A stretch of DNA of 64,000 nt from Myxococcota bacterium (GCA_965223415.1 OZ245002.1:3808001-3872000); one strand, 5' to 3'; counted from the stretch's first letter, positions 1,096-55,990 are shown. The notes: a model not told the origin generated them from the sequence alone. Numbers and translations: made by a program.

Positions 1096-1376
1096 CGGCC
1101 GACCCGCCCGAACTTCGCGAACACCTCGAGCAGCTCGTCCTTCTTGCGCTTCCGCTCTGCGGCGCTGCCGCCGGTGAAGGCATCGGCCACGCAGGTCTCC
1201 ACGTGACTGCCGAGGATCAGCTTTCCCACCTGGTCGAGGGCGCCCCGTACGGCCGCGATCTGCAGCAGCACGTCCACGCAGTAGCGGTCCTCGTCGAGCA
1301 TGCGCTGGATGCCGGCCACCTGCCCCGCCACCCGCTTGAGCCGCTTCTCCACCGCCGTCCGCGTCGCGTCGTCCAT
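1092..1376 (-). CDS. csoR: CsoR/RcnR-family copper-sensing repressor
   Basis: [15 protein letters not shown]...[12 protein letters not shown]...HVETCV (C-H-C ligand set); translationally coupled to copA. Confidence 0.93.
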
Positions 1377-1383
1377 ACTGGAT

Positions 1384-1412
1384 ACTATATACCCCTATGG
1401 GGTATAAGGCAA
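1384..1412 (-). promoter_or_regulatory. csoR-copA sigma70-type promoter with CsoR operator in the spacer
   Basis: Minus strand TTGCCT-N17-TATAGT-N7-ATG; palindrome TATACCCC-TAT-GGGGTATA (1388-1406) matches the C-tract/G-tract CsoR operator style. Confidence 0.85.
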
Positions 1413-1413
1413 G

Positions 1414-1484
1414 TGAGACAAGGGGACGTTCCTTTCTGTCTCACGGCGAAGCCGTGAGACAGAAAGGAACGTCCCCTTGTCTCA
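1414..1484. repeat. REP/REPIN-like palindrome (type C)
   Basis: 34-bp perfect arms TGAGACAAGGGGACGTTCCTTTCTGTCTCACGGC with a GAA loop; includes the stop codon of the WYL gene. Confidence 0.9.
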
Positions 1485-2450
1485 GTACCGTTCGAGGGTG
1501 GCGCGGAGCTCGCGGGCGACGGCTTCGGCGAGGGAGGCGGGCTCCAGAACGCGGACGCCGGGGCCGAAGGAGAGGATCCAGCGCACCAGCTCCTCGCCGG
1601 TGCCCACCTCCACGCGCAGCTCCACCCGGCCGTCGTCCCGGACGCTGGCCTGCTGGCTCGGGTGCCAGGCGTGCTCCTGGACGTAGAGGGCCCAGCGCGG
1701 CTCGAAGAGCAGGCGCACCGGCTCGGGAGCCTCCACCACGACGCCGAAGGAGGCGGCGGTGTAGGCATCGAAGTCGAAATCGTCCGGCACCGTGAAGGGG
1801 CGCTCGGTCAGGCTCGCCTCGCGCACCCGGTCGACGGCGAAGGTGCGCACCTCGCCGCTCTTGTGGTCGTGGCCGATCACGTAGAGGCCGCCGTTCTTGT
1901 ACCAGACCCGGTAGGGGTCCAGGTCCCGCGCGCCCCGCTCGCCGGTCCGGCCCGTCTGGTACTCCATCGCCACCGTGCGGTGCTCGAGCACGGCCTCGTT
2001 GAGCACGCGGATCACGTCCCGCAGCTCGTCGTAGCGCTTGTGGGGGCCGGGCTGGATCCGGAAGGAGTCCCGCAGCTGCTCGAGGAAGCCCGCCAGCTCC
2101 GGGCCCAGGCTCGCCCGCACCTTGGCCATGGCCGAGTGGATCGAGTCGTGGAAGACCGTGCCCTGGAGGATGCCCAGCAGGTCCTCGCCGAACGCCAGGG
2201 CCAGCACCTCGTCGGCAGTGAAGGGGGCGTCGGCGAGCTCGAAGGTCTCGTACAGGCGGTAGAAGACGCGGCCGTCGCGCTTCTCGCTCGTGACCGGGAA
2301 GCCCGCGTACATGAGCGCATCCAGATCGCGGTAGACGGTGCGGCGGTGCACCTCCAGATCCCGGGCCAGGTCGTCGAGGCCGACGCCGTAGCGGCTACGG
2401 GCCAGGCGCTGGATCAGGCGCCACTGCCGGGCGAGCTGGTCGCCGCGCAT
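1482..2450 (-). CDS. HTH-WYL-WCX transcriptional regulator (PafB/PafC/YafY-like)
   Basis: N-terminal wHTH (LARDLEVHRRTVYRDLDAL), WYL domain (RDLDPYRVWYKNGGLYVIGHD...RTFAVDRV), C-terminal WCX (RWILSFGPGVRVLEP). Confidence 0.9.
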   Translation of the reverse strand: MRGDQLARQWRLIQRLARSRYGVGLDDLARDLEVHRRTVYRDLDALMYAGFPVTSEKRDGRVFYRLYETFELADAPFTADEVLALAFGEDLLGILQGTVFHDSIHSAMAKVRASLGPELAGFLEQLRDSFRIQPGPHKRYDELRDVIRVLNEAVLEHRTVAMEYQTGRTGERGARDLDPYRVWYKNGGLYVIGHDHKSGEVRTFAVDRVREASLTERPFTVPDDFDFDAYTAASFGVVVEAPEPVRLLFEPRWALYVQEHAWHPSQQASVRDDGRVELRVEVGTGEELVRWILSFGPGVRVLEPASLAEAVARELRATLERY

Positions 2451-2456
2451 CGGGCG

Positions 2457-3023
2457 TTACTTGTTCACCCGCTCCACGTACTCGCCGGTGCGGGTGTCGA
2501 CGCGGACCACCTCGCCCTCCTTGATGAAGAGCGGCACCTGCACGACGGCGCCGGTCTCGAGGGTGGCGGGCTTGGTGGCGCCGGAGGCGGTGTCGCCCTT
2601 CACGCCGGGATCGGTCTGAGTGATCTCCGCGTGGATGAAAGCGGGAAGCTCGATGTTGATCGGAGACCCCTTGTACAGGATCACGTCGACCTCGACGTTC
2701 TCCTTCAGGAACTTGACCGTGTCGCCCACCTGCTCCTTCGGGATCGACATCTGGTCGTAGCTCTCGTTGTCCATGAACACGAGGCCTTCGCTGTCCGCGT
2801 AGAGGAACTGCATGTTGCGCTCGTCCACGTCGGCCTCGGCCACCTTCTCGCCGGCGCGAAAGGTCTTCTCGAGCGTCCGGCCCGTGCGCAAGTTCTTGAT
2901 CTTCGTGCGTACGAAGGCGCCGCCCTTGCCCGGCTTCACGTGCTGGAAGTAGGTCATGACGAACGGCTCGCCGTCCAGCTCGATCTTGAGCCCGTTCTTG
3001 AAGTTCGACGTGTCGACCGCCAT
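2457..3023 (-). CDS. efp: Translation elongation factor P
   Basis: HVKPGKGGAFVRTK loop; PGVKGDT...KPATLETG...VPLFI. Confidence 0.97.
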   Translation of the reverse strand: MAVDTSNFKNGLKIELDGEPFVMTYFQHVKPGKGGAFVRTKIKNLRTGRTLEKTFRAGEKVAEADVDERNMQFLYADSEGLVFMDNESYDQMSIPKEQVGDTVKFLKENVEVDVILYKGSPINIELPAFIHAEITQTDPGVKGDTASGATKPATLETGAVVQVPLFIKEGEVVRVDTRTGEYVERVNK

Positions 3024-3062
3024 AAGCCGTTGGATCTCCAGGGGATTCGGGGCGGGAGAGAA

Positions 3063-3113
3063 TAGCGGCTGCGCCGTGTCCGGCTAGCGCCTGCGCCGTG
3101 TCCAGCTAGCGGC
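3063..3113. repeat. 22-bp tandem repeat (about 2.3 copies)
   Basis: TAGCGGCTGCGCCGTGTCCGGC / TAGCGCCTGCGCCGTGTCCAGC / TAGCGGC between the acyltransferase stop and efp. Confidence 0.7.
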
Positions 3114-3993
3114 GACGGAGCGCGTCCACCATGCCCTGGACGTGCTCCCGGACGTCCCGGGCGGCCTTCTCCGGCGCCTTTCGCGAGAGGGTCTCCGGCG
3201 TGATCGCGGGCCCGTAGCGGATGCGGTAGCGCACCGGCAGCGGGATCAGGGGGAAGGTGACCGGGATGGGCAGCGTCGGCATCCCCAGGCGGCGGGCCAC
3301 GCCTTGCAGGTCCGCGATCACCGGCGCCTGGCTCTCGGGCCCCGTCAAGGCGACGGGCACCACGGGAACGTTGGCACGCACGGCCTCCTCCACGAAGCCC
3401 GGATGGAAGGGCTCCAGGAGGAAGCGGGAGAGGAAGCTCTTGCCGATGCCGGCGGCGCCCTCTGGGAACACCAGCACGCGCTCGCCGCCGGCGAGCAAGG
3501 CGCGGAAGTTCTCCCTCGTGCCGATCACCTGGCCCACGGCGGCGTAGAACGGCTGGATCACCGGGAGGTCCTGCACCCAACGGTCCACCAGCGAGCGCAG
3601 CACCCGGGGCGGGTCGCCCTGGAAGAGGCCGTCGGCGATGAGCATGGCGCCGTCGAAAGGCAGCACGCCGCCGTGATTGGCCACCAGGATGGCGGGCCCC
3701 TCTGCCGGCACGTGCTCGAAGCCGTGGCTGCGGACGCGGAACCAGCGGTGGTAGAGGAACTCGGCGAAGGGCCGGACGCGCTCGATCGCTTCCGGGTCGA
3801 GGCCGAAGGGGTCGTCCAGGGGCCGGGGAGTGCGAGGCAGGGCGCCCCGGTCGCGCAGCCGCTCGCGAAGGCCGTCGAGCGCCTGCAGCCAGAGCTCCGC
3901 CTCCTCGCCGGGAGGGCGCCGCCCCGTCGGTCCGGTGGGCCCTAGCAGGCCCTCCACCAGCTCTCCGATCGACTCCTGGTCGGTGTGCACCAT
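3106..3993 (-). CDS. Lysophospholipid acyltransferase (PlsC family)
   Basis: ANHGGVLPFD (HX4D-like) and VLVFPEG motifs. Confidence 0.85.
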   Translation of the reverse strand: MVHTDQESIGELVEGLLGPTGPTGRRPPGEEAELWLQALDGLRERLRDRGALPRTPRPLDDPFGLDPEAIERVRPFAEFLYHRWFRVRSHGFEHVPAEGPAILVANHGGVLPFDGAMLIADGLFQGDPPRVLRSLVDRWVQDLPVIQPFYAAVGQVIGTRENFRALLAGGERVLVFPEGAAGIGKSFLSRFLLEPFHPGFVEEAVRANVPVVPVALTGPESQAPVIADLQGVARRLGMPTLPIPVTFPLIPLPVRYRIRYGPAITPETLSRKAPEKAARDVREHVQGMVDALRRR

Positions 3994-4073
3994 TCGTGGT
4001 CAAGGTATCGACGCGAGCGGGCGACCGCCCGGACGGTCTACCCTCCGCGGCCCGCCTCCGCGAAAGGGTCACC

Positions 4074-6308: not shown

Positions 6309-6346
6309 AGAAACGGGGCCGGAGTTGAGGCTCAACTCCGGCCCCG
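6305..6346. repeat. Shortened REP-like palindrome (type A), likely bidirectional terminator
   Basis: CGGGGCCGGAGTTGAG-G-CTCAACTCCGGCCCCG preceded by GTGAAGAAA; same core as 18310 and 52189; lies between convergent genes. Confidence 0.8.
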
Positions 6347-6354
6347 AAGTCGAA

Positions 6355-7302: not shown

Positions 7303-7325
7303 CGCTCTTCTCCTTCCGCCGGCCC

Positions 7326-9622: not shown

Positions 9623-9631
9623 GGAGCCCGC

Positions 9632-10448: not shown

Positions 10449-12134
10449 ATGCGCGCCACACGATCCCTGCCGCTGATCCTCGCCGGACTCCTCATGATGG
10501 TCGCGGCCCAGGCGGGCGCCTTTCCGAAGACCCTCAACGACTGGCAGAATCGCTACGGCGCCTCATCCGCCTCCGGCGACAATGCCGACTGCCAGCTCTG
10601 CCACGTGAACGCCAACGGCGGCGATCCGTGGAACGGCTACGGGTGGGACATGCGGGATGCGCTGGTCGATCTCACCTGCGATGTCAGCGGCGACGGCACC
10701 GTCTCCAACGCCGAAGCACTCTTCTGCATCGAGCTCGACAACTCCGACGGCGACGGCAGCGGCGTCGACAACACCACGGAGATCGGAGTCAGCACCCAGC
10801 CCGGCTGGACGAACGGCGCCTTCAACACCCACTTCTTCAAGTCGGGCCTGGTCACGATGAACAACCCGCCGCCGGCGACGATCGGCAAGCTCGACCCCGA
10901 CGGAACCGAGCCCCCGCCGCCCCCGCCGCCTCCGCCGCCGGACGACGACGCCGACGTGCCTCCCGGGCAGCTCAAGCGCGACACCATCGTGGTGCGCCCG
11001 GGCGAGTCGATCCAGGCCGCCATCGACCGGGCCAAGCCCGGCACGCGGATCTACATCCTGGCGGGCACCTACCGGGAGCTCTCGAACCCGACCAATGCCC
11101 TCAACATCACCAAGAACGGCATCCGCCTGATCGGTCAGGAGACGTCGAACAAGCGCGTGGTCATCGAGAACGCGGGCAACCAGCGCAACGGCATCGTGGT
11201 CGTGCCCGAGGACCGGGTCGACTGCATGAGCTGCCACACCGACCTGGCACCGCCCTTCCCGTTGAAGCCCGGTGTGCCCCTGGGCCTCAAGATGCGGGAT
11301 CCGATGATGACGGGCTTCGAGATCCGCAACATCACGATCCGGGGCTTCGACAACAACGGGCTCTTCACCGAGAACGTCGACGGCTTCAAGATCATCAACG
11401 TGGAGTCGGTGGACAACCGCAACTACGGGATCTTCCCGACCCTCTCGAAGAACGGTATCGTCACCCACAGCCGAGCCACCGGCTCGGACACGGACAGCGG
11501 CATCTGGGTCGAGACCTCCGAGAACGTCGTCGTCAGCCACAACTACGCGGCGGACAACGTCAACGGCATCGAGGTCTCCAACAGCGACGACGTGCTGGTC
11601 GTCCACAACGAGTCGACGAACAACACGATCGGCGCCGCCATCCTGCTGCTTCCGGACATCTTCGACGATCGCCCCGGCGCCAAGCGGATCGACCTTCGCG
11701 ACAACCACTTCCACTCGAACAACCGGCTGAACACCGCGCGCCCCGGATCCATCCTGGCTTCCGTACCGAGGGGGATCGGGGTGATCTATCTCGGCGTGGA
11801 CGACTCGACGGTCGAGGGCAATCTGATCGAGGACAACGAGTTCACCGGGGTTGCCACGGTGGACTACTGCCTGGCGGTGTTGGGGACGCCCTTCGACTGC
11901 GGGCTCGATCCGTCGGTCACGCCCCAGTTCCTGGCGGACCAGTCGGCGACGAACAACGCCATGCTCGGCAACACCATGATCGACAACGGCACGAACCCGG
12001 ATCCGACGAGCCCCTTCGCCTTCACGGCGGCGGACTTCACGCTGCTCACGGCGGGCGATTGGGGGAACTGCTACGAGGGCAACGCGTTCACCACGTTCTT
12101 CTCGTTCCTCGGGGTCCTGCCGCCCTGCAACTGA
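10449..12134 (+). CDS. Secreted c-type-heme-motif protein with right-handed parallel beta-helix domain
   Basis: Signal peptide; CQLCH; poly-Pro linker; beta-helix repeats (NYGIFPT, DSGIWVETS, NGIEVSNS) with inserted CMSCH. Confidence 0.75.
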   Translation: MRATRSLPLILAGLLMMVAAQAGAFPKTLNDWQNRYGASSASGDNADCQLCHVNANGGDPWNGYGWDMRDALVDLTCDVSGDGTVSNAEALFCIELDNSDGDGSGVDNTTEIGVSTQPGWTNGAFNTHFFKSGLVTMNNPPPATIGKLDPDGTEPPPPPPPPPPDDDADVPPGQLKRDTIVVRPGESIQAAIDRAKPGTRIYILAGTYRELSNPTNALNITKNGIRLIGQETSNKRVVIENAGNQRNGIVVVPEDRVDCMSCHTDLAPPFPLKPGVPLGLKMRDPMMTGFEIRNITIRGFDNNGLFTENVDGFKIINVESVDNRNYGIFPTLSKNGIVTHSRATGSDTDSGIWVETSENVVVSHNYAADNVNGIEVSNSDDVLVVHNESTNNTIGAAILLLPDIFDDRPGAKRIDLRDNHFHSNNRLNTARPGSILASVPRGIGVIYLGVDDSTVEGNLIEDNEFTGVATVDYCLAVLGTPFDCGLDPSVTPQFLADQSATNNAMLGNTMIDNGTNPDPTSPFAFTAADFTLLTAGDWGNCYEGNAFTTFFSFLGVLPPCN

Positions 12135-12149
12135 CCCAGCCGGGCGAGG

Positions 12150-13400
12150 TCAGGGCCGAGGCCGCTCCTCGGCCCTGACCTCGAGGCGCTTCGTCTGCCG
12201 GCGGCGCGCTTCGATCTTCGCCAGCTCCTCGAGCTCGGCGGTGCGCTCGCGCAGCTTCCGGATCACCGGGTCCGGCGGGGCGTCGTCGCCTGGCGGCCCG
12301 CTCGCGACCGCCGGCGGCTCCGCTTCGGGCTCGTAGCGGACCGTTCGCGTCACCTCGTGAAGCTCGCCCTTGCGATCGCGCGCGCGGAAGCGGATCTCGT
12401 TGCGGCCGGGGCGAAGCTCGACGAAGGCGTCGAAGCTCCCGTCCGGGAAGACGCGGAGAGCTCGAGCGGGCTCGCCGGTGGTGGCGTTGTCGATCTCGAC
12501 GTCGGCGAGGCCTACCAGGTCGAGCTGGCGCAGGCGGTTCACGATCATGGACGGCTGGGTCACGGCCTCGAGCCGGCCGGAGGTCCAGCCGGTCATGCGT
12601 GCCAGCACGTCGACCCCGGCCTGGGCCTCGGGGCCGATGGCGAAGGCGAACAGCCGGATGTCGTCTCGCCCGGCGGCGATGGCGGCCTCGAGCGCGTAAC
12701 GCTCCGCGCGCCCGCCGTGGATCGGCCGCGTCGGCGCGCCGTCGGAGAGGAAGACGATCGAGCGCAGTCGGTCGTCCGGGAGGCCCTGGGCCGGGCGGAG
12801 CTGGTCGTGGGCGGCGCGGACCGCCGCCTGGTAGTTGGTGCCGGCGCCTTCGCGGTAGAGATCCCGGGGAACGTCGGTGAGGGCCGAGGCCAGTGCGTCG
12901 CGGCTGCTGCCGAGGGGCGCAGCGATCCGCGATTCCTCGGCGAAGGTGACGAGGCCGACCCGGAAGCGCGCCGGGTCCAGCCGCGAGACGAGGGCCCGGG
13001 CCGCCTCGAGCTCGGCAGCCAGAACCGTGTCTTCGAAGTCCTGCTCGTCGCGCAGCCTGCGCACGAGAGGCGAGTCGCCGGTCTGCTCCTCGAGCCAGGC
13101 CAGCAGCTCCGGGTCGGTCCGGCCCCCCGGTCCGTCCCCGTCGAGCTCGAGACCCGAGTCGAGGAGCGTGCTGGCGGACACGTCGAGGGCAATCACCACG
13201 TCGTGGCCCGAGCCCCGGCGCGTGCCGCCGTGGCCCAGCACCTCGATGAGCTCCCGCTCGGAGACCGCGCCGCCCGCGGCCGGCGCGTCCACCTCCAGGA
13301 AGGGGCTCGCCGCGGCCACCGGACGGCCCAGCAGGAGCAGAAGGGCGGAGAGCCTCAGGAGGGTGCGGGCAGCGAGGGGAGCATCCACGGAAGGGAGCAT
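12150..13400 (-). CDS. Secreted VWA-domain protein
   Basis: Signal peptide; MIDAS motif DVSAS, GTNY, IVFLSDG. Confidence 0.8.
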   Translation of the reverse strand: MLPSVDAPLAARTLLRLSALLLLLGRPVAAASPFLEVDAPAAGGAVSERELIEVLGHGGTRRGSGHDVVIALDVSASTLLDSGLELDGDGPGGRTDPELLAWLEEQTGDSPLVRRLRDEQDFEDTVLAAELEAARALVSRLDPARFRVGLVTFAEESRIAAPLGSSRDALASALTDVPRDLYREGAGTNYQAAVRAAHDQLRPAQGLPDDRLRSIVFLSDGAPTRPIHGGRAERYALEAAIAAGRDDIRLFAFAIGPEAQAGVDVLARMTGWTSGRLEAVTQPSMIVNRLRQLDLVGLADVEIDNATTGEPARALRVFPDGSFDAFVELRPGRNEIRFRARDRKGELHEVTRTVRYEPEAEPPAVASGPPGDDAPPDPVIRKLRERTAELEELAKIEARRRQTKRLEVRAEERPRP

Positions 13401-13742: not shown

Positions 13743-14453
13743 CTAGGCGGCGTCGCCCAGTGTCTTCAGGATCCACGCCTCCAGCGTGCCGAGGACCTCG
13801 GCGTGGACCTCCTCCGGCGTCCGGCCGGACTTCTTCGCGACCCGGAGCCCGTGGTCGGCCTCGTCGACCACGTGCAGCTGCACCGGAGCGCCGACCCGCC
13901 CGAGGGTCTTGCGAAGGGCCGGCAGGTCGCAGTGGCGATCCTTGTTCCCCTGGAGGAACAGCATCGGGCTCACCACCCGCCACAGCCGCTCGGCCCGGAG
14001 GTCCTCCGGGTTGTCCTGCTTGTGGAGTGGGAAGCCCATGAAGAAGATGCCCTCGATGCGCAGCCGGGAGGTCGCCGCGTGGGCCGCCGCCAGGGCGCCG
14101 GTGTTCTTCCCGCCGATGAAGACGTGGGCCGGCGCCGCCGTCGGATCCCGCCCCAGCATGTTCACCGCCGAGTGGAAGGTGCGCTGGAGCACCCGCGGAT
14201 CGTCCGGCTTCCGCTTGCCCGCCATCTGATAGGGGAAGCAGAATCGAAGGGTCAGGTACTTCCGCTCGGTGAGCGAGCGCTGAAGGGACTCGATCAGCGG
14301 GTCGTCCTCTGCCGCGCCCTGGGCGAAGACGACGCTGATCCGGGAGCCGGTGGGCCACCACTCCGGAATCCCCAGGACGCCCTTCACCGCTTCCAGGCCG
14401 TGCACAGGCTCCGGCAGGCGGATCTCGATCTCTTCGTACTGGGCCTCGGCCAC
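13743..14453 (-). CDS. Alpha/beta-hydrolase-fold protein with altered nucleophile elbow
   Basis: RFCFPY, IGGKNTG (family normally GGKSMG), GFPLH, FLQGNKD, EADHGL; probable GTG start at 14453. Confidence 0.75.
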   Translation of the reverse strand: MAEAQYEEIEIRLPEPVHGLEAVKGVLGIPEWWPTGSRISVVFAQGAAEDDPLIESLQRSLTERKYLTLRFCFPYQMAGKRKPDDPRVLQRTFHSAVNMLGRDPTAAPAHVFIGGKNTGALAAAHAATSRLRIEGIFFMGFPLHKQDNPEDLRAERLWRVVSPMLFLQGNKDRHCDLPALRKTLGRVGAPVQLHVVDEADHGLRVAKKSGRTPEEVHAEVLGTLEAWILKTLGDAA

Positions 14454-14649
14454 CGCCAATCGGTGCTCTCCTGTCGGGGCTTCCGCTTCCCGCGGGGTGC
14501 CGTCCCTGGGGACACACCCGGCGCGGGTAGGCACGATGGGGCCCGCGCCTCGGGGATTGCCGGCCGGCAGGATACCCGTTCGGCCTGTCGGGGGTAGTGG
14601 GGCCGCTCCCGCCTCGATACCTTCGTCGCTGCAACCCCTCGGGACCACT

Positions 14650-15570
14650 ATGGAAAAAGTCCTCATTACCGGCATCGCCGGGGGCCAGGGACGGCTGCTC
14701 GCCCGCCGGCTGGCCGCGGACGGCGCCGTCTGCGGCGTCGACTGGACAGCGTGGGACGGAGCCCCCGATGGGGTGGCTGTTCACGTCCTCGACCTGCGCA
14801 AGCGCAAGTTCGAGGACGTGATCCGCACCGAGCGCCCGAGCGCGGTCGTCCACCTGGGGATGATCCGCCACTTCAAGGGCGACCCGAAGCGGCGCCACGA
14901 CGTGAACGTGCGGGGCACCAAGCAGCTCCTCGACCACTGTGTCGAGTACGGCGTCCAGAAGATCGTCGTGCTCTCGAGCGGCTACGTCTACGGGGCGTTC
15001 CCGGAGAACCCCTTCTACCTGGACGAGGAGCACCCGCTCTCCGCCAGCCGCAGCTATCCGGAGATCCGCGACCTGGTCGAGGTCGACACCCTGGCCGGCG
15101 CCTTTCTCTGGAAGTACCCGCACATCCGCACCTGCGTGCTCCGCCCGGTGAACGTGCTCGGCGGCCAGGTGCGCTCGATGATCGCCGACTACCTGCGTCG
15201 CGAGCGCGTGCCTACCGTGCTGGGCTTCGACCCGATGATGCAGTTCCTGCACGAGGACGACATGAGCGAGGCCATCGCACTGGCCCTCGCCAAGGGGCTC
15301 CAGGGCATCTTCAACGTCACCGGCCCGGGCCAGGTGCCCCTTCACACCGCCATCGCAGAGACCGGAGGCCAGGCGCTGCCCATCCTCGAACCCCTGTTCC
15401 GGCCGGCGATCCGGATGCTCTTCGGCGCCGGCGTCGTTCCGTGGCCTCCCGGCGCGATCGATTTCCTGAAGTTCCCGGTCACGCTCTCGGGCAAGCGCTT
15501 CGCGGAGGAGACCGGCTTCCAGCCCCTCTTCGGCCTGAACGAGACTTTCACCGCCCTGCAGAAGGGCTGA
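14650..15570 (+). CDS. NAD-dependent epimerase/dehydratase family protein
   Basis: VLITGIAGGQG Rossmann motif, NVRGT, SSGYVYG, QFLHEDD. Confidence 0.85.
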   Translation: MEKVLITGIAGGQGRLLARRLAADGAVCGVDWTAWDGAPDGVAVHVLDLRKRKFEDVIRTERPSAVVHLGMIRHFKGDPKRRHDVNVRGTKQLLDHCVEYGVQKIVVLSSGYVYGAFPENPFYLDEEHPLSASRSYPEIRDLVEVDTLAGAFLWKYPHIRTCVLRPVNVLGGQVRSMIADYLRRERVPTVLGFDPMMQFLHEDDMSEAIALALAKGLQGIFNVTGPGQVPLHTAIAETGGQALPILEPLFRPAIRMLFGAGVVPWPPGAIDFLKFPVTLSGKRFAEETGFQPLFGLNETFTALQKG

Positions 15571-17858: not shown

Positions 17859-18312
17859 TCGCGCGGAGGTGGAGATCGAGCTCGGAACCCGGGAGCAGCG
17901 CCTGTACGACCGGCTCCGCGGCCGCCTGCAGACGCCGGTGCACGGCGCCCCGACGGGCTTCCGCGACGTGGTCCTGCTGCTGCCGGACCTCACGACCCTG
18001 ATGTTCCGCCTGTTGCGGGACGAGCGCGTGGCGGTGGGCGACAAGGCGATCGCGCTCCTCGGGATCGGCTACGTCCTCTCCCCGATCGACGTCCTTCCCG
18101 AGTTCCTGCTCGGCCCGATCGGCCTCGTCGACGACGTGGTGGTGGTCGCTGCCACCCTCTCGCGGCTCGTGAACCACGTCCACCCCGACGTGGTCCGCTC
18201 CCACTGGTCCGGCCAGGGCGACGCCCTCGAAGCCATCCAACGCCTCACCGGCTGGGCCGAGGACCAGTTCACCGGTCGCCTCCGTGGAGTCGTACGCCGC
18301 CTCCTCGGTTAA
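17848..18312 (+). CDS. YkvA/DUF1232 family membrane protein
   Basis: YVLSPIDVLPEFLLGPIGLVDD motif. Confidence 0.85.
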   Translation: MAGDRAEVEIELGTREQRLYDRLRGRLQTPVHGAPTGFRDVVLLLPDLTTLMFRLLRDERVAVGDKAIALLGIGYVLSPIDVLPEFLLGPIGLVDDVVVVAATLSRLVNHVHPDVVRSHWSGQGDALEAIQRLTGWAEDQFTGRLRGVVRRLLG

Positions 18313-18393
18313 GAAACGGGGCCAGAGTTAAGAATGAAGAAACTCTCCCTTTGGGGGGAGTTTCTTCATTCTTAACTCTGGCCCCGTTTCTTA
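18310..18393. repeat. REP/REPIN-like palindrome (type A)
   Basis: 36-bp perfect arms TAAGAAACGGGGCCAGAGTTAAGAATGAAGAAACTC around a 12-nt centre; supplies the TAA stop of the ykvA-like gene; between convergent genes. Confidence 0.9.
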
Positions 18394-18418
18394 CGATGAG
18401 GCAGGTAGGCGCTTTCGG

Positions 18419-18841
18419 CTAGAGCAGGCGGCGCATCTGCTCGCGGTCGGTGGAGGGGATGCGGCGGACGCGGCCGGTGGCGTCGACCAGGGCGTGCTCG
18501 GTGGCGGCGAGGGCGACAGTGCCTTCCGGGCCTTCGATGCGGTAGGCGAGGCGCAGGGAGGCGCCGCGGAGCCACTCGAGCCAGCAGGTGACGGCGACCT
18601 CCTCGTCGAAGCGGGTCACGCGCTTGTAGTCCACCTCGACCCGGGTCGTGGCGAAGTGGCGATCCTCGGACACGTACTCCCGGTACGGCCGGTGGTGCTC
18701 CTCCATCCAGCGGATCCGCGCCAGCTCCAGGTACCGCACGTAGTTCGGGTGATGGACGACGCCCATGGCGTCGGTCTCGTAGAACGGCACCCGATGCCGG
18801 ACGGTGCTGGTCGCCGCTCCGGAGGGCGGGTCGTCGTTCAC
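18419..18841 (-). CDS. Acyl-CoA thioesterase (YbgC/FcbC hotdog family)
   Basis: RVPFYETDAMGVVHHPNYVRYLELAR; GTGA-coupled start. Confidence 0.9.
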   Translation of the reverse strand: MNDDPPSGAATSTVRHRVPFYETDAMGVVHHPNYVRYLELARIRWMEEHHRPYREYVSEDRHFATTRVEVDYKRVTRFDEEVAVTCWLEWLRGASLRLAYRIEGPEGTVALAATEHALVDATGRVRRIPSTDREQMRRLL

Positions 18842-22054: not shown

Positions 22055-22510
22055 ATGATCGTCCGCAGCGTCGCGCTCCTCTGTCTCGTCGGCATTCTCC
22101 TCGCCGCCCCCGTCGCGGGGGAGGAGAGCTGGGCCTACGGCCTGGCCGGCGACCTGATGAGTCCCTACTGCCCGGGCCGTGCGCTCTCCGAGTGCCCGAG
22201 CCCGAACGCCGAGAAGCTCCGTGTCTGGATCCTCGACCAGGAGAAGGCCGGCCGGAGCCAGGCCGAGGTCGAGGCCCAGCTCTACGAGCAGTTCGGCGAC
22301 CAGCTGCGCCAGTCGCCCAAAGCCGAAGGCGTCGGCCTCGTCGCCTACGCCATTCCCATCGTCGTCTTCCTCGGCGGCGGCCTCCTCGTCGCCGTCTTCC
22401 TCCAGCGCGCCCGCGCCGCCTCCGACCCCGAGCCCGCCACCCCCACCCCCACTCGCCCTACCGCCGACACCGACCTCGAACGCCTCCTCGACGAACAGCT
22501 CGAACGTTAA
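22055..22510 (+). CDS. CcmH-like cytochrome c biogenesis protein
   Basis: Signal peptide, LMSPYCPGRALSECPS, G+S..E....L..+FG motif, C-terminal TM helix. Confidence 0.75.
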   Translation: MIVRSVALLCLVGILLAAPVAGEESWAYGLAGDLMSPYCPGRALSECPSPNAEKLRVWILDQEKAGRSQAEVEAQLYEQFGDQLRQSPKAEGVGLVAYAIPIVVFLGGGLLVAVFLQRARAASDPEPATPTPTRPTADTDLERLLDEQLER

Positions 22511-22538
22511 GTTAGGGGCCGGTTCCGTTTGTTAAGTT
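22506..22538. repeat. Single-arm REP-like unit (type B)
   Basis: GTTAAGTT-AGGGGCCGGTTCCGTTT-GTTAAGTT; core identical to the arms at 55193; contains the stop codons of both convergent genes. Confidence 0.85.
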
Positions 22539-23906
22539 GTGCTCGGTCTGGTCGGTGAAGGTGACGGGGACGCGGAGGGGATCGGCGCGGCCGGGCAGCG
22601 CGATCCAGAGGTCGCCCTGGTGGCGGCCGGGGTGGCGCAGCTTCACGACGAGCTCGCCGGCGCGTTCGGCGAGCTGGGCCACTTCGGCGTGGCCCATGCC
22701 GACATGGAGGCTCGAGCCGACGACGACAGGGCGATCCGAGGTCGGCGTCAGGGCGAGCAGGCGGCAGCCGCCCGCCGGCACCTCGCGCGGCTCGATCGCC
22801 TCGACGACACCGAGCGGGCGGTTCGGCCAGAACTCGTAGACGTGGACCGGCGCTCCCGGAGGCTCGGGCAGCGCCTCCAGATCGAGGCCGAGGTGCGCGG
22901 GGACCGCGCCCGGGTTCCACAGCAGCACCGCGAACCGCCCTCCCCGCAGCGCCGCCGCCACCCCGTGCTCGCCCACCCGGCGCAGGGGCCGGGCCAGCGG
23001 GGGCAGGGCACGCCGCAGCAGGGTCGCCGCCTCGTCGCCGGCCTCGTCCGGGTGGCCGGCCAGCTCCACGTGCCCGCCGAGGCTGGCCAGGGAGAGCTCC
23101 GTCTCGAGCCGGGCCCGCCCCACGCTCGTCTCGATGGGCGGAGGACCCAGGTGCCATAGCCGCCCCGCCTCGTGGGCCCGGGCCGCCAGGTTCGACGCCG
23201 TGCGCACCGCGCCCGCGTCCTTCCCGGCCACGGCGAGGTGGGGGAGCGTCTGGCTGGTCCGGGCGCCGGGCCAGGACACAACGCCCCGGGGCACCACCCG
23301 CCCGCGGCGTTCCGCCGCCGCGCGCTCGGCCCAGGCTTCGAGCAGGGCGTGCTCTTCGCCGCCGACGCCGATCCACACCCGATCGCCGGGGCGCGCGACG
23401 CCTGGCGCCAGAGGAGCCTCCGCCGCACCGGCCTGCGCCGCGAGCCCGCCGCCCTCGGCGTGGATCCGGGCCACGCCGCCGCCCGTGAACCCGGCAAGCC
23501 CGCGAACCGTGCCATGGCGGAACAGACACCAGGCCCCGGTGGGATCGAAGCGTTCGCCCTGGGCCCCCGCGAGTACGAGGCAGGGCTCCTCGCTCCCGAC
23601 CACGGTGTCCGGGCCGCGGTTCTCGATGCCCAGCTGGTGGGTGAGCCCGCGTCCCGCAGCGTCCACCTCCAACACCCAACGCAGCGCCAAGGCACCCCGG
23701 GCGGCCCGCTGCACCTCGATGCGCTCGGCCGGCCCTGCGGCCGTCTTGATGCGCCCGCGCGCGACGATGGTTGGTGCCCCACCGGCGGACCACGGTGTTC
23801 GAAGCACGAGAGGCTGCCCTCCCGGCGCGAGCACGCGCGCCACGCCGCGGCGCGGCTCGACCTCGAGCCGCAGCCCTTCGCAACGCACCTCGATCATCGC
23901 CGACAC
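22512..23906 (-). CDS. Hypothetical protein resembling a degenerate alpha-galactosidase (GH36/GH27-like C-terminus)
   Basis: C-terminal VLLWN...VYEFW...VPAGGCRLL...PVVVGSSLHV resembles alpha-galactosidase C-terminal beta domains; no intact catalytic barrel recognised. Confidence 0.45.
   Translation of the reverse strand: MSAMIEVRCEGLRLEVEPRRGVARVLAPGGQPLVLRTPWSAGGAPTIVARGRIKTAAGPAERIEVQRAARGALALRWVLEVDAAGRGLTHQLGIENRGPDTVVGSEEPCLVLAGAQGERFDPTGAWCLFRHGTVRGLAGFTGGGVARIHAEGGGLAAQAGAAEAPLAPGVARPGDRVWIGVGGEEHALLEAWAERAAAERRGRVVPRGVVSWPGARTSQTLPHLAVAGKDAGAVRTASNLAARAHEAGRLWHLGPPPIETSVGRARLETELSLASLGGHVELAGHPDEAGDEAATLLRRALPPLARPLRRVGEHGVAAALRGGRFAVLLWNPGAVPAHLGLDLEALPEPPGAPVHVYEFWPNRPLGVVEAIEPREVPAGGCRLLALTPTSDRPVVVGSSLHVGMGHAEVAQLAERAGELVVKLRHPGRHQGDLWIALPGRADPLRVPVTFTDQTEHNLTNGTGP

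Positions 23907-49349: not shown

Positions 49350-49353
<4 letters not shown>
48649..49353 (-). CDS. ABC transporter permease, tungstate (TupB)-like
   Basis: [36 protein letters not shown]...[12 protein letters not shown]. Confidence 0.88.
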
Positions 49354-51386
<2,033 letters not shown>

Positions 51387-51430
51387 GGCGGAGGAGTCTA
51401 GCTCGCCGTGGCCGCTACCCTGGGCCGGCC

Positions 51431-52195
51431 ATGGGTGATCCGGCCATCGAGGCTTGCGTCGGGAGTGCACACGCGTACGTGCGCCGCGAGGGCGACGAGC
51501 TGGACCTGGTCTTCTTCGAGACGCTGCTGCAGGAGCGCCCGGCGGCCGAGCTACTCGGCGCGCTCGCCGAACGTCAGGACGGGCGTGGCGCCATCGGCGG
51601 CGGTCTCGTCTCGACCTTGCGGGCGCTCCGGCGGCTCGAGGCCCTGGGTCTCGCCGATCATCCGGTGCCCGAGCGCGCCTGCGTGTGGCTGTGCAGCTTG
51701 CAGGACGGGGAGGGCGCCTGGGCGCCGGGGGGAGCTGCCGACGACGAGGAACGCATCGCCTGGACCGGCTGCGTAGGCGGCCTCCTCGCCGGAACGCCGT
51801 TCGCCCGTTCCTCGGTGCTGCGCGGGGCCGAGGCCTTCCTCGCCTCGCGCTGGAGCGTCGAGCGCGTGAAGGGGCCGAGCTACGAGCCCATCCTGGCCTA
51901 CACCCATCTGCTCTCGCAGGTGCCCTCGGAGCTGGCGGACGAGGCGCTGCATCGCTGCGGCCTCGAGCTCGACGCGGGCTTCCGCATGGGCGCGTTCTCC
52001 CCCCTCGCGACCGCCCGCGTCTTCCTGCGCGCCCGCGTCCGCGCGCTCCCGGGCTCCCGGATCGCGGGCTCGGAGCTGGTCGCCTCCCTCCTCGCAGCCC
52101 AACAGCCCGACGGAAGCTGGCCGCCCACAGACCCCGACCAGGACCCGGTCGACGCCACCCTCGAAGCCGTCGAAGCCCTCCTCCGGCTGAGTTAA
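51431..52195 (+). CDS. Hypothetical protein with prenyltransferase/squalene-cyclase-like QW repeats
   Basis: [12 protein letters not shown] and [11 protein letters not shown] repeats. Confidence 0.6.
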
Positions 52196-52270
52196 GAAAC
52201 GGGGCCGGAGTTAAGAATTCAGTTCCCTATAGGGAACTGAATTCTTAACTCCGGCCCCGTTTCTTAACTC
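52189..52270. repeat. 82-bp perfect palindrome, REP/REPIN-like (type A)
   Basis: GAGTTAAGAAACGGGGCCGGAGTTAAGAATTCAGTTCCCTA|TAGGGAACTGAATTCTTAACTCCGGCCCCGTTTCTTAACTC; provides the TAA stops of both convergent genes. Confidence 0.95.
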
Positions 52271-52710
52271 GTCCAGCCGGCGCCGCTCTCCAGGTATTCG
52301 ACGACCTCGATGCCCTGGCCGTCCGGGTCGATCACGAAGAACATCTTCGTGCCGTGAAGGGTGACCGGGGGGCTCATCGTCGGGGCGCCGAGGGCCTTCG
52401 CCTGCTCGTAGGCCGCGTCGGCGTCGTCCACCTCGAGGGAGAGGACGCGCAGGCCCAGGCCCATGGCCGGCGGCGTCTTCGGGTTGAAGGCCATGTCCAT
52501 CAGCTCGACGCGGAAGCCGCCGATGGTGCCGCCCGCGGCGCGGCCGCCTCGCCCGCCGCTGCCGACGAGATCGCCGAGGGCGGCGCCGTCGACCTCGGTC
52601 TCGAACTCCTGGTCCCAGCCGAAGACGTCGCGATAGAAGGCCCTCGAGCGCTCGAGGTCGGTCACCTCGATGGAGACGTGGTCGACGCGGCGGATCGGGA
52701 GCGGCTTCAT
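52264..52710 (-). CDS. VOC/glyoxalase family protein
   Basis: VDHVSIEVTDLERSRAFYRDVFG, VELM, DPDGQGIE. Confidence 0.88.
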   Translation of the reverse strand: MKPLPIRRVDHVSIEVTDLERSRAFYRDVFGWDQEFETEVDGAALGDLVGSGGRGGRAAGGTIGGFRVELMDMAFNPKTPPAMGLGLRVLSLEVDDADAAYEQAKALGAPTMSPPVTLHGTKMFFVIDPDGQGIEVVEYLESGAGWTS

Positions 52711-53519
52711 TCGGGCCACTCCGGCCAGTCCGTCGAGACCCGCGCTTTCCACTCGGGGGTGCGCTTCTGCATGAAGGCCACGGGGCCCTCGATCGCATCC
52801 GGCGCTCCCATCAGCACGTGGTGCAGCGCCGTCTCCTTGCGCTCCACCGCCTCCGGGCCGAGCTCCAGGCTCTCCCACAGCAGGCGCTTGCTGACGGCCA
52901 CGCTGAGCGGCGAGGCGTGGGCGGCGGTGTCGCGGGCCAGGGCGAGGGCGGCCGGCAGCACCTCCTCCGCGGGCAGCACGCGTGAGGCGATGCCCAGGGG
53001 CTCGATCTCCTCCCCGCGGAAGGTCCGGCCGGTGAGCAGGATCTCGGCGGCTCGCGCGATACCGACGAGCCTCGGCAGGGTCCAGTGGGCGTAGGCATCG
53101 GGCATGACGCCCCGGCGCACCTGCACCACGCCGTACTTGCCCTCCCGGGCGAAGAAGCGTACGTCCGCCTGCAGGGCCAGGGTGAGGCCGAGGCCGATGG
53201 CGTGGCCGTTCACCGCGGCGACCACGAGCTTGCGGATGCGGAAGGCCGGGAATGCCACCGCCGCGGCGCTGAAATCGGCGTTGCCGTCCTGGCTCTCGAA
53301 GGTCGCGGCGGCCTCGCTCATGTCCGCCCCGGCGCAGAAGGCCCGGCCCGCACCGCTCAGCACCACGGCGCGGACCTCGTCGTCCTCGTCGCAACGCCGG
53401 TAGGCGTGCTCGAGCTCCTCGCCCATGCGTCCGGTGAAGGTGTTGAGCTGGTCCGGCCGGTCGAGGGTGATCGTCGCTACGCCCTCTTCGACCCGCATCG
53501 CGATGTCCCGATAGTCCAT
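52707..53519 (-). CDS. Enoyl-CoA hydratase/isomerase family protein
   Basis: ITLDRPDQLN, GAGRAFCAGAD, AAVNGHAIGLG, LLTGR. Confidence 0.9.
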   Translation of the reverse strand: MDYRDIAMRVEEGVATITLDRPDQLNTFTGRMGEELEHAYRRCDEDDEVRAVVLSGAGRAFCAGADMSEAAATFESQDGNADFSAAAVAFPAFRIRKLVVAAVNGHAIGLGLTLALQADVRFFAREGKYGVVQVRRGVMPDAYAHWTLPRLVGIARAAEILLTGRTFRGEEIEPLGIASRVLPAEEVLPAALALARDTAAHASPLSVAVSKRLLWESLELGPEAVERKETALHHVLMGAPDAIEGPVAFMQKRTPEWKARVSTDWPEWPE

Positions 53520-53579
53520 GGAGCTTCGGAGGGTAGGGCAGTTTGACAGCGCCTTCCCCACGAAGTACCCAACCGCCCC

Positions 53580-55202
53580 ATGCTGAACCTCGCCGCGGTG
53601 CACGAAGCGATCGCCGTCGAGATCCCCGACCGGGAGTGCCTGGTCTTCCGGGATCGCCGCTTCACCTGGCGCGACGTCACGGACCGGACGCGGCGCCTGG
53701 CGGCCGTGCTGCGAGGCGCGGGCCTCGGCTGCCGGCACGAGCGCGCGGGCCTCGAGAACTGGGAGAGCGGGCAGGACCACGTCGCCCTCTACCTCTACAA
53801 CGGCAACGAGTACCTCGAGGGCATGCTCGGCGCGATGAAGGCGCGCTGCGCGCCCTTCAACGTGAACTATCGCTACGTCGAGGAGGAGCTCCTCTACCTC
53901 TTCGACAACGCGGACGCCAAGGCGGTGATCTTCCACGCCGGCTTCGCGCCGCTCCTCGAGAAGCTGCGCGACCGGCTGCCCCAGGTTCAGCTGTGGCTTC
54001 AGGTGGACGACGGCTCTGGCCAAGCGCTCGCGGGGGCGGTCGACTACGAGGAGGCCCTGGCCGGCGCGACGCCGAAGGCGCCGGAGGGGCTCACGGAAGA
54101 CGATCTCTACATTCTCTACACCGGCGGAACCACGGGCATGCCGAAGGGGGTGCTGTGGCGGCAGGAGGAGGTCATCCAGGCGGCGCTGATGCCTCCCCGC
54201 GTCGAAACCAGCCGGGCGGCACTCGTCGAGCGGGCGAGGAAGGGGAGCCAGGTGCGCTCTCTTCCCACGCCGCCCTTCATGCACGGCGCGGCCCACTGGG
54301 CGGCCTTCACCATGTGGCACGTGGGCGCCTGCGTCGTCGTCCAGTCCGAGACGCAGCACTTCGACCCGGACGACGTGTGGCGCACGGTCGAGCGCGAGAA
54401 GGTGACGGCGATGACGATCGTCGGCGACGCCTTCGCCCGCCCGCTGCTGGACGCCCTCGCGAAGGGCGACTACGACACCTCGAGGGTCCAGACCGTGAGC
54501 TCCGGCGGCGCGATCCTCACCGCCGCCGTGAAGGACGAGCTCCTGCGGGCGCTTCCCCAGGCCCGGGTCCTCGATGTGCTGGGCTCGTCGGAGAGCGGCC
54601 ACCAGGCGACCCAGATCTCGCGCTCCGGCGCCAAGGCCACGACCGGCGACTTCGAGCTGGCGCCGGGCAATGTCGTGCTCAGCGAGGACCTGACCCGGGT
54701 CGTCGCGTCCGACTCCGGGGAGACCGGCTGGCTGGCGCGCACCGGCCCCGTGCCCCTGGGCTACTACAAGGATCCGGAGAAGACCGCCAAGACCTTTCCG
54801 GTGGTGGGCGGGGTGCGCTACTCGGTGCCCGGCGATCGCTGCATCGCCGGCCGGGACGGCAGCCTGAAGCTCCTCGGCCGCGACTCGGTCACGATCAACT
54901 CCGGCGGCGAGAAGATCTTCGCCGAGGAGGTCGAGCACGCCCTCAAGCACCACCCAGCCGTCTACGACGCGGTGGTGACCGGCACGCACCACGAGCGCTT
55001 CGGCCAGCAGGTCACGGCCGTCGTCCAGCTCCGCGAAGGCCAGACCGCCAGCGAAGACGACCTCCGCGCGGCCTGCGAAGCCCACATCGCCCGTTACAAG
55101 CTCCCCCGCGTCTTCGTCTTCGTCGACGCCATCACCCGCGCCCCCAGCGGAAAAGCCGACTACCGCTGGGCCAAAGCCACCGCCGAGTCGGCGTTGCGTT
55201 AG
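53580..55202 (+). CDS. Acyl-CoA synthetase (AMP-forming, FadD19-like)
   Basis: LYTGGTTGMPKGV, GSSESG, GYYKDPEKT, PGD, GRDSVTINSGGEKIF, SGKADY. Confidence 0.92.
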   Translation: MLNLAAVHEAIAVEIPDRECLVFRDRRFTWRDVTDRTRRLAAVLRGAGLGCRHERAGLENWESGQDHVALYLYNGNEYLEGMLGAMKARCAPFNVNYRYVEEELLYLFDNADAKAVIFHAGFAPLLEKLRDRLPQVQLWLQVDDGSGQALAGAVDYEEALAGATPKAPEGLTEDDLYILYTGGTTGMPKGVLWRQEEVIQAALMPPRVETSRAALVERARKGSQVRSLPTPPFMHGAAHWAAFTMWHVGACVVVQSETQHFDPDDVWRTVEREKVTAMTIVGDAFARPLLDALAKGDYDTSRVQTVSSGGAILTAAVKDELLRALPQARVLDVLGSSESGHQATQISRSGAKATTGDFELAPGNVVLSEDLTRVVASDSGETGWLARTGPVPLGYYKDPEKTAKTFPVVGGVRYSVPGDRCIAGRDGSLKLLGRDSVTINSGGEKIFAEEVEHALKHHPAVYDAVVTGTHHERFGQQVTAVVQLREGQTASEDDLRAACEAHIARYKLPRVFVFVDAITRAPSGKADYRWAKATAESALR

Positions 55203-55265
55203 GGGCCGGTTCCGTTTGTTGCGTTGCGAAGCAACGCAACAAACGGAACCGGCCCCTAACGCAAC
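55193..55265. repeat. REP/REPIN-like palindrome (type B)
   Basis: 35-bp perfect arms GTTGCGTT-AGGGGCCGGTTCCGTTT-GTTGCGTTGC with a GAA loop; supplies the TAG stop of the acyl-CoA synthetase. Confidence 0.93.
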
Positions 55266-55267
55266 AC

Positions 55268-55990
55268 CTAGCGGGGGTAGGCGGTGAGGAAGCGGCGGAT
55301 GCGGGCGGCGTTGGCGCCGAGGTCGCCGCGGCCGTCGCGGCTCTTGGAGCGGAGGTCGAGGACGGAGCTGTCGCCGCCCTCGGCGGGGCGGACGCGGATG
55401 ACGACGTCGTCCACGAACTGGAAGACGGCGCTGGTCTCGCGGGCGAGGACGGTGCCGGCGGCAGCGTCGACGGCGATCACCTCCCAGCCGAGCTTCTCGG
55501 CTGTCGCCTCGGCCAGCTCGAGGGCGCGGGCGGGCTCGGCGGCCGTGGCGTGGGGGGCGAGGTCCGGGTAGGCGGCGCGCACCTGCTCGCCGAAGGCCTC
55601 CGGGTAGGCCATGTCGCGGCCCCGCTCCGCCGGGTCCGAGGCGAAGGCCGGCGGGTCGGCGAGATCGGTCGTGATGTCGTTGATCGGCGGCAGGTCGCCG
55701 CTCGGCCCCGCCGAGAGCGCGAGCACGGCCACCAGCACCACGCCACACCCGACGCCGACCCACGCGAGGCCGCGCCCGGACCGTCCGCTGCCCGCCCGCG
55801 TCGCCCGCAGGGCCAGGAGCCCCAGCACCAGCGCCACCAGGCCCTCGAGCAGCCCCAGCCCGAACATCCATTGGAACCCGAACATCGGGCTCACCAGGCC
55901 CAGGTGGATCAGCACCGGGCCCATCACGACGTCGAAGGCGCCGAGCGCGCCCAGGATGCCGGCGGCGAGAGCGAGCTTGGATCGCTGCAT
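55268..55990 (-). CDS. DUF1499 domain membrane protein
   Basis: PPINDITTD, AYPDLAP, FQFVDDVVIRV, DLRSKSRDGRGDLGANAARI. Confidence 0.88.
   Translation of the reverse strand: MQRSKLALAAGILGALGAFDVVMGPVLIHLGLVSPMFGFQWMFGLGLLEGLVALVLGLLALRATRAGSGRSGRGLAWVGVGCGVVLVAVLALSAGPSGDLPPINDITTDLADPPAFASDPAERGRDMAYPEAFGEQVRAAYPDLAPHATAAEPARALELAEATAEKLGWEVIAVDAAAGTVLARETSAVFQFVDDVVIRVRPAEGGDSSVLDLRSKSRDGRGDLGANAARIRRFLTAYPR

Follow-up and report, generated by a model that had tools for sequence, protein, structure and literature searches.

What could deplete G from only one strand of the DNA that runs into a short palindrome, and do so at the ends of unrelated genes? The question is raised by a stretch of 64,000 nucleotides from a Myxococcota bacterium (GCA_965223415.1 OZ245002.1:3808001-3872000, hereafter the window, with positions counted from its first letter), which contains several palindromes resembling repetitive extragenic palindromes (REPs). 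A preliminary description had noticed that, on each strand, the sequence leading 5′ into such a palindrome is almost free of G at synonymous positions. It had suggested that this "halo" follows the element rather than the transcript, and had ascribed it either to a strand-specific mutational process seeded at the hairpin, for example nicking of the HUH type known from REP-associated tyrosine transposases (RAYTs), or to selection for tracts resembling Rho utilization (rut) sites. The window corresponds to G000:C1:3808001-3872000 of a genome, G000, that consists of one contig of 5,833,097 bp with 71% G+C and is 97% complete. Genes were called with our own codon-log-odds caller, which gave 5171 genes and a coding share of 90.7%, and elements were searched over the whole genome with four arm cores, allowing up to 4 mismatches. 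The halo was measured either as G/(G+C) at fourfold sites or as the raw GC skew of the strand running into the element (the incoming strand), the latter profiled over the 270 flanks of 135 full palindromes. A gene was said to end at an element when one lay at most 60 nt downstream (344 genes), the 1403 convergent and 3424 tandem ends without element serving as controls, and to start at an element when one lay at most 60 nt upstream of its start (67 genes); genes with fewer than 12 informative sites were excluded from the per-gene end values.

The halo is real and genome-wide. At the 344 gene ends next to an element, G/(G+C) at fourfold sites in successive 10-codon bins from the stop codon was 0.159, 0.151, 0.173 and 0.208, reaching 0.38 by codon 100, while convergent and tandem ends without element stayed at 0.39-0.47 throughout. 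Pooled over the last 20 codons, the value was 0.155 (bootstrap 0.140-0.172) at an element against 0.454 (0.449-0.459) in the other 4827 genes, and the per-gene difference was highly significant (Mann-Whitney, p = 5e-140). Values below 0.2 occurred at 218 of 343 ends with an element and at 215 of 4815 without; many of the most extreme element-free low-G ends, of which 70 were inspected, carry other REP-like remnants. There was no general gradient toward stop codons, the genome average lying at 0.41-0.45 at all distances. When G and C at fourfold sites were counted by distance and strand over the whole genome, as the preliminary description had proposed, the skew was thus a property of ends with an element and not of all 3′ ends. 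The raw GC skew of the incoming strand was −0.28 at 20-40 nt from the element, −0.17 at 80-100 nt and −0.07 at 200-220 nt, and was about zero beyond 320 nt; an exponential fit gave a decay length of 191 ± 25 nt. Both flanks showed the halo in 100 of the 135 palindromes. Position in the genome had no influence, left and right flanks being alike in every 600-kb segment, and a dependence on replication direction was rejected since no left/right switch occurs along the chromosome. The global skew of the replication type is almost nil in this genome (at most 0.012 per 200 kb), and neither this skew nor the way the genes are oriented allowed origin and terminus to be placed.

That the skew goes with the element and not with the transcript is evident from its mirror image in the 67 genes starting beside an element. 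In codons 1-40 of these genes G/(G+C) at fourfold sites was 0.57-0.59, compared with 0.40-0.44, and the baseline was reached by codon 60; the mirror image persisted in the 47 of them with at least 200 codons and a high coding score (0.56, p = 1.7e-8 against 3363 controls). Expressed on the incoming strand, the value was 0.179 for genes reading into an element (210 flanks; baseline 0.43) and 0.413 for genes reading away from one (40 flanks; baseline 0.57). The same was seen in tandem settings, where the end of the upstream gene had 0.18-0.19 and the start of the downstream gene 0.40-0.43 on the incoming strand (baseline 0.57). Non-coding DNA between the element and the next start was also shifted, to 0.42 (266 G, 367 C) against 0.506 in control upstream DNA. 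An association with the element that had initially been argued from the single gene csoR is therefore carried by 67 downstream genes as well as by non-coding flanks.

By their sequence and setting, the palindromes are REP doublets forming hairpins (REPINs), accompanied by single REPs, of four families (A to D), each with a predicted cognate RAYT of the Y1/HUH type. We classify them in this way because four Y1_Tnp genes each sit between inverted arms of one family. Genome-wide, 134 palindromes scored at least 14, of which about 115 fall in the four families and are near-perfect and 65-85 bp long. The search with arm cores found 373 arms in 230 loci, mostly outside genes: 135 full palindromes (44 B, 42 A, 41 C and 8 D, with arms of 30-42 nt that are mostly perfect), in which two inverted REP arms make one long hairpin, the remaining loci holding 87 single arms, mostly of family D, and 8 tandem D arms. 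The head of the arms reads GGGG(A/C)C. Eight matches to Y1_Tnp (PF01797) were found in the genome, and four genes of about 256-279 amino acids exceed the cut-off, one between inverted single arms of each family; the N-H-x-H motif is conserved in an alignment of the four RAYTs. That of family C (G000:C1:3235897-3236736; locus L007:1465-2304) is frameshifted, with the HUH part in one frame and the rest, which is 34% identical to the family B RAYT, in another, a disruption that could be an assembly error. Relatives of these RAYTs occur mostly in metagenome-assembled genomes labelled Myxococcota or Deltaproteobacteria.

Such an organization is that of the REPIN-RAYT systems of Pseudomonas and Enterobacteria, which likewise consist of near-identical short repeats with inverted arms forming hairpins of 65-85 bp, in several families per genome, the arms of each family flanking its own Y1/HUH gene and the elements lying downstream of genes and often supplying their stop codon. 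At 212 loci a called gene lay no more than 150 nt away on each side; 126 of these were convergent, 84 tandem and 2 divergent, so that 210 of them lie downstream of at least one gene. In 281 of the 344 genes no more than 15 nt separate the stop codon from the core, and this codon is supplied by the outer end of the arm or adjoins it, for example at window positions 22505-22510, 18310-18312 and 52189-52195. Downstream location and stop-codon overlap are described for REPs in the part of PMC3733652 available to us. Our elements differ from those systems by their GGGG(A/C)C head in place of GTAG or CGTC tags, by their host, which has 71% G+C and is probably a member of the Myxococcota, and by the strand-polarised halo in their flanks.

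The hairpin itself is not the cause of the halo, because ordinary hairpins lack one, whereas that of single arms is no weaker than that of full palindromes. Indeed, G/(G+C) remained at 0.41-0.44 at the 93 gene ends where an ordinary hairpin (score 11-20) takes the place of an element, which rules out a generic effect of hairpins, whereas genes reading into single arms had 0.09, compared with 0.179 for full palindromes. An extended imperfect palindrome was also ruled out, the complementarity of the flanks being no greater than their composition gives: over 200 nt around 107 palindromes it was about 0.31 in register (bins 0.28-0.34) and 0.27-0.33 in shifted and cross-element controls. The single arms of families A, B and C reveal a polarity, with the halo on the outer side only, 5′ of the strand that bears GGGG(A/C)C: 15 outer flanks had values of 0.00-0.24, while 13 inner flanks were mostly at 0.4-0.65 (p = 9e-5). 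The families also differ in strength. Family C, whose RAYT is frameshifted, has the weakest halo, with 0.267 over 58 flanks against 0.146 over the 134 flanks of A and B (p = 1.6e-8); at 15-75 nt from the element the values were 0.269 for C, 0.136 for A, 0.087 for B and 0.083 for D.

The bases that change were read from codons of different degeneracy. All 8 fourfold codon families shift alike. Among twofold codons, A rises to 0.198 from 0.103 in those ending in a purine, and T falls to 0.043 from 0.117 in those ending in a pyrimidine; the rare codons GAA, AAA and CAA increase in halos throughout the genome, as they had been seen to do in the window. The first and second codon positions show losses of G (0.023 and 0.017) beside gains of A (0.019 and 0.019), and losses of T (0.013 and 0.007) beside gains of C (0.017 and 0.005), total purine being unchanged. 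The AT skew is +0.079 near elements and 0.006 far from them (p = 2e-8), and amino-acid usage shifts slightly, in opposite directions on the two sides of the element. Read on the incoming strand, these changes have the look of G>A and T>C transitions, which would be followed by re-equilibration at GC-rich third positions, and would not be those left by direct C>G replacement. If the equilibrium C/G equals (A/G)/(T/C), codon counts would predict a ratio of 5.5, and the observed one is 4.75; a doubled rate of G>A together with a roughly 2.7-fold rate of T>C would suffice for the observed C/G at fourfold sites held at about 92% G+C. Selection for optimal codons was ruled out, given that the rare A-ending twofold codons rise and that the ribosomal cluster lies near the genome average (0.453 in 20 genes for ribosomal proteins, EF-Tu and EF-G, against 0.432 genome-wide). 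A halo of this size is implausible as a product of codon selection.

Comparison with relatives indicates how the halo behaves when the element is missing. RAYT-like genes are present in all 5 congeners and absent from G007, a genome of the sister genus in 2 contigs, where 800 kb (681 genes) held no long palindromes and only 1.2% of gene ends were below 0.2. In 31 G007 orthologues of element-adjacent genes (at least 45% identity, C-termini aligned to within 15 amino acids) the value was 0.434, compared with 0.128 in G000. In 665 kb of the congener G003, 23 element-free orthologous ends had 0.40 against 0.139 in G000, although some of the 23 carry REP remnants, and the 12 ends of G003 that do have an element had 0.283 against 0.447. 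Four element sites are common to the two congeners and 23 are found in G000 only. The codon bias is therefore lacking from orthologous ends without the element, with an exception at the 18310 site of the window to which we return below, and a halo that existed as a property of the genes beforehand was largely rejected by the near-baseline values in G007 and G003. At some orthologous intergenic sites the REPIN families are not the same: at contig C20 (~14237-14777) and contig C16 (~18998) of G003, a family of the form AGTCAAC...GGGGACGGGGTTTACAATTGACTTGTT stands where G000 has C or A.

The halo is found in other genomes as well. Of the 79 RAYT loci of such genomes that we could analyse, 62 are bordered by inverted arms, and almost all of these have a GGGAC(G) head. 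In genomes of at least 64% G+C, 47 flanks of RAYT arms showed a GC skew of −0.175 near the arm and +0.017 far from it (p = 3e-8), with a similar decay, and an AT skew of +0.071 near against −0.044 far. In the genome G032, 24 REPINs (from 30 loci of 104 arms) had a skew of −0.136 compared with 0.017 (p = 5e-9), while no halo surrounds the REPINs of the low-GC genome G033.

We favour, at a probability of about one half, the explanation that the halo is a cumulative mutational footprint, specific to strand and orientation, of nicking and resynthesis or of single-strand exposure at REPs, and not a selected signal. The process would act repeatedly at each REP, in an orientation-specific manner. The outgoing strand, which leaves the element 5′ to 3′, would either become accessible in single-stranded form or be synthesised anew, outward from a 3′-OH at the element, over a tract whose extent would decay with a length of about 190 nt. 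Once exposed, that strand would gain C>T and A>G changes by deamination of its cytosines and adenines, and G·T mispairs formed while the outgoing strand is copied from the incoming one would give the same changes. On the incoming strand these would be read as G>A and T>C, and at third positions near 92% G+C such a transition bias would re-equilibrate to an enrichment in C and a loss of G. The obvious candidate initiator would be a nick by the RAYT, a single-strand DNA nuclease of the Y1/HUH type for which cleavage is predicted. A more specific version, which we hold more tentatively, is that each REP may be repeatedly processed by this domesticated nuclease, each event renewing or exposing about 200 nt. 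The element would then rewrite the synonymous sites of its neighbours and, slightly, their amino acids, and the halo would record, base by base, in which direction, over what tract length and how intensely the RAYT acts, fading when the RAYT dies, as in family C. The HUH/RAYT-type mutation initially proposed is thus favoured by the presence of RAYTs within their own arms, by the effect in both gene orientations and in non-coding flanks, by the polarity of the arms, by the weaker halo of family C and by its absence at element-free orthologues, but the hairpin is not its seed, and the spectrum does not look like one of direct C>G changes.

Several observations speak against this mutational footprint, or fit it poorly. 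The argument for mutation is drawn from base composition, and the one comparison of protein conservation, a tail-to-body ratio of amino-acid identity of 0.946 in 57 pairs and 0.996 in 652, was not significant (p = 0.32) and is under-powered. The mirrored effect in genes reading away is about half as strong, in log-odds, as that in genes reading in, a difference that a purely DNA-level process does not predict, and non-coding flanks shift less than fourfold sites do. Single arms of family D have a halo on both sides (0.088 and 0.196). Halo strength shows no trend with divergence of the core (−0.17 at 0 mismatches, −0.19 at 5-8). The link with a broken RAYT comes from one family, and its frameshift could be an error of assembly. 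At the 18310 site, two element-free congeners keep a low G at both gene ends (G:C of 3:14 and 4:24 in one case, 2:19 and 4:21 in the other). Among other genomes, 69 RAYT-arm flanks below 64% G+C had no significant halo (p = 0.12), nor did the 15 REPINs of G031, a genome of 73% G+C (−0.036 compared with 0.0, p = 0.18).

Could the halo be a signal in RNA instead? A C-over-G skew upstream of a pause hairpin is the classical signature of a rut site, our flanks are indeed C-rich and G-poor, and some REPs of E. coli are partly Rho-dependent terminators according to the available part of a recent preprint (bioRxiv 10.64898/2026.03.23.713779), so that REPINs might be viewed as bidirectional Rho-dependent terminators. 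This reading fails here because no rho gene is detectable in G000 or its genus. In the single contig of G000, Rho_RNA_bind (PF07497) had no match, TIGR00767 reached 56.6 and 31 bits at best, against a cut-off of 509 and in ATPase-like regions only, and tblastn with the Rho of G007 returned one match of 44 bits; rho was likewise undetected in the 5 congeners. Of the relatives as a whole, none of the 12 in genera g1, g2, g4, g5, g6 and g9 has a detectable copy, all 18 outside these genera have one, and a clade within the family seems to have lost Rho. MutS homologues are present in G000. Nor are Rho and the halo coupled across four genomes, G032 having both, G031 neither, G000 the halo only and G007 Rho without REPINs or halo. 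We therefore consider Rho-dependent termination at REPINs extremely improbable, and the rut-like selection offered by the preliminary description finds no support in a genome and genus where rho is undetected. This Rho-less background removes the most obvious functional explanation of the halo. An intrinsic terminator does not fit either: the sequence 3′ of the window palindromes at 1484, 18393, 52270 and 55265 was inspected, no terminator scan being run, and no T run directly follows any of the four. Selection on transcripts independent of Rho is the more serious rival, although we judge it unlikely. A G-poor, C-rich 5′ stretch would keep the RNA unstructured at 71% G+C, leaving the hairpin to fold as a signal for 3′-end formation, termination or stability, and the host would adapt the flanks after insertion. 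That the halo is strongest in genes reading into an element, the shift being half as large in those reading away, suits this scenario, as do the position of nearly all loci downstream of a gene, the proximity of stop codons to the core, and a halo confined to high-GC genomes, which would be expected if RNA structure matters only at high G+C. The weaker shift of non-coding DNA and the case of G031 also keep it alive, and REPs are treated as 3′ untranslated region regulators and partial terminators of E. coli in the portion of the same preprint available (bioRxiv 10.64898/2026.03.23.713779). But it assigns no role to the mirrored G enrichment in the sense strand of downstream genes or to the non-coding skew, and ordinary hairpins are without a halo. 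Single arms, which form weak hairpins, have a halo (0.09) no weaker than that of 35-bp palindromes (0.179), and the inner sides of single A, B and C arms have none, though transcripts from there meet the hairpin too. The shift also far exceeds that of translational selection in the ribosomal cluster, amino-acid usage moves with it, and the REPINs of G031 lack a halo at 73% G+C.

The halo could also predate the element, if REPINs home to sites that already switch from C-rich to G-rich, such as unstructured single-stranded targets. The 18310 site, where congeners without the element have low G at both gene ends, could be taken as an example, copies with cores identical to the consensus already have full halos, and the different families at the same orthologous sites of G000 and G003 suggest that some sites are favoured. 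Against such a preference, the 31 ends in G007 and the 23 element-free ends in G003 are near the baseline, and a smooth gradient of 190 nt on both sides is hard to explain by target recognition. Ready-made targets are moreover scarce, because only 215 of 4815 element-free ends fall below 0.2 (1.2% of ends in G007), many of the 70 inspected having REP-like remnants. We regard this explanation as improbable, more so than selection on transcripts but less so than a Rho-dependent origin. As for an artefact, our gene caller is a simple one and the genome a single assembly, and yet the raw GC and AT skews were obtained without gene calls, long genes with high scores retain the mirror effect, contigs of other assemblies have the same pattern, and reading frames and protein similarity to orthologues are preserved; we give this possibility practically no credence.

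In the window, the halo can be followed element by element. A family C REPIN at 1414-1484, a perfect palindrome with 34-nt arms and a 3-nt loop, lies between two genes of the minus strand: the WYL-like gene (1482-2450) reads into it and has a halo over 1485-1750 (0.14 in its last 40 codons), while csoR (1092-1376) reads away and has the mirror image over 1200-1376, with 12 of the 13 fourfold codons among codons 4-20 ending in G. The family A REPIN at 18310-18393 (40-nt arms, 98% complementary) has halos on both sides, one over 18100-18309 at the 3′ end of gene 17869-18312 on the plus strand (0.04 in the last 40 codons, raw skew −0.18) and one over 18394-18650 at the 3′ end of gene 18419-18841 on the minus strand (0.11, raw skew −0.27). 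A single family D arm on the plus strand at 22507-22545 (core 22515-22538) supplies the TAA stop of the ccmH-like gene (22055-22510, plus strand). The halo of this gene over 22250-22507 has a raw skew of −0.42, and in the last 62 codons (22322-22507) only 3 end in G and none of the 46 fourfold codons does, 43 ending in C and 3 in T. The gene 22512-23897 on the minus strand has the corresponding halo over 22546-22800, with 2 G against 21 C at fourfold sites of its last 40 codons. A second family A REPIN (52189-52270, a perfect palindrome with 41-nt arms) has a halo over 51950-52188, at the 3′ end of gene 51431-52195 on the plus strand (0.22, raw skew −0.24), and none on its right flank, in gene 52264-52752 on the minus strand (0.40). 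Finally, the family D REPIN at 55193-55265, a perfect palindrome with 35-nt arms, stands between the acyl-CoA synthetase-like gene (53580-55202, plus strand; halo over 54950-55192, 0.10, raw skew −0.26) and gene 55268-55990 on the minus strand (halo over 55266-55520, 0.00 in the last 40 codons, raw skew −0.25). The window also contains an internal control, an ordinary 17-bp hairpin without REP between convergent genes at 12145-12183, where the two ends have no halo (0.61 and 0.48, percentiles 91 and 64). A 16-bp perfect palindrome at 6314-6346, which consists of the family A core only (CGGGGCCGGAGTTGAG) and is also located between convergent genes, has none either (0.50 and 0.32). Recounting reproduced the earlier figures for csoR and the ccmH-like gene exactly; the C-ending bias that had been listed for element-side ends places seven window genes at percentiles 0-9.5 of all genes (fourfold sites, last 40 codons), and the element-free end at 12000-12131 is as rich in G-ending codons as had been stated, with 16 G against 9 C at fourfold sites.

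Some other repeats were encountered along the way. A REP-like hairpin of a fifth, shorter kind (GAACGCAAC-loop-GTTGCGTTC, in many cases with GGAACGTCCCC after it) has 149 copies, for example downstream of G000:C1:1745532-1748012, and the 34 gene ends that have it and no A-D element show an intermediate halo (0.26). Another conserved non-coding repeat (...CTTCGCTTCTC...GGATCGCGG.GCGGGGGGCGGCCA.CGC.CCATGGCTC...), seen at G000:C1 ~4578714-4579195, recurs 3′ of genes in G000, G003 and G004, including the ccmH-like orthologues (loci L010 and L011). At G000:C1:1111195-1111232, 19 C are followed by 19 G, a perfect palindrome of 38 bp.

The halo shares features with several known phenomena. As in the strand asymmetry around replication origins and in transcription units, the outgoing strand has G over C and T over A, with a change of sign at the element like that at an origin. 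Such asymmetry is usually explained by single-strand exposure and transition bias, which fits the spectrum observed here. The scale is nevertheless different, about 200 nt instead of megabases, around at least 230 centres, independent of position and with an amplitude of −0.28 in a genome nearly devoid of skew; a skew of the replication type was discarded, as flanks are alike in every 600-kb segment and no clear global skew exists. The C-over-G bubble of Rho terminators is, like the halo, a tract rich in C and poor in G that precedes an RNA hairpin at the 3′ end of genes, but the halo has its mirror image in genes that read away and in DNA outside genes, goes with the orientation of the REP, and occurs where no rho was found. 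In E. coli, the REP motif itself is without C-over-G skew, as far as the available part of the preprint goes (bioRxiv 10.64898/2026.03.23.713779). There is also a likeness to the halo in local mutagenesis. At DNA breaks, nicks and quasi-palindromes, mutation depends on the distance from a structured or cleaved site; those systems are experimental mutation hotspots, and we know of none in which such mutagenesis has given hundreds of gene ends a new equilibrium codon usage. We found no prior description of a compositional or codon halo around REPs in the full-text literature, subscription journals being outside the coverage, nor the term "GC skew" in the REPIN/RAYT literature searched, and "skew" does not occur in the accessible part of PMC3733652; the pattern is apparently undescribed.

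For at least 7% of the genes of this bacterium, codon usage at the 3′ end is set by an adjoining repeat and not by expression or by a genome-wide bias, which matters for analyses of codon usage, of the ratio of non-synonymous to synonymous substitution rates (dN/dS) and of horizontal transfer in high-GC bacteria. Should the halo prove to be selected, it would be a new Rho-independent 3′-end signal in such bacteria. If each REP is indeed processed again and again by its RAYT, this would represent a new way for a mobile element to shape the coding sequence of its host without moving. REPs and REPINs are among the commonest bacterial repeats, and a strong footprint that is polar and depends on distance would offer a handle on RAYT activity, with respect to its strand, its side and its reach.

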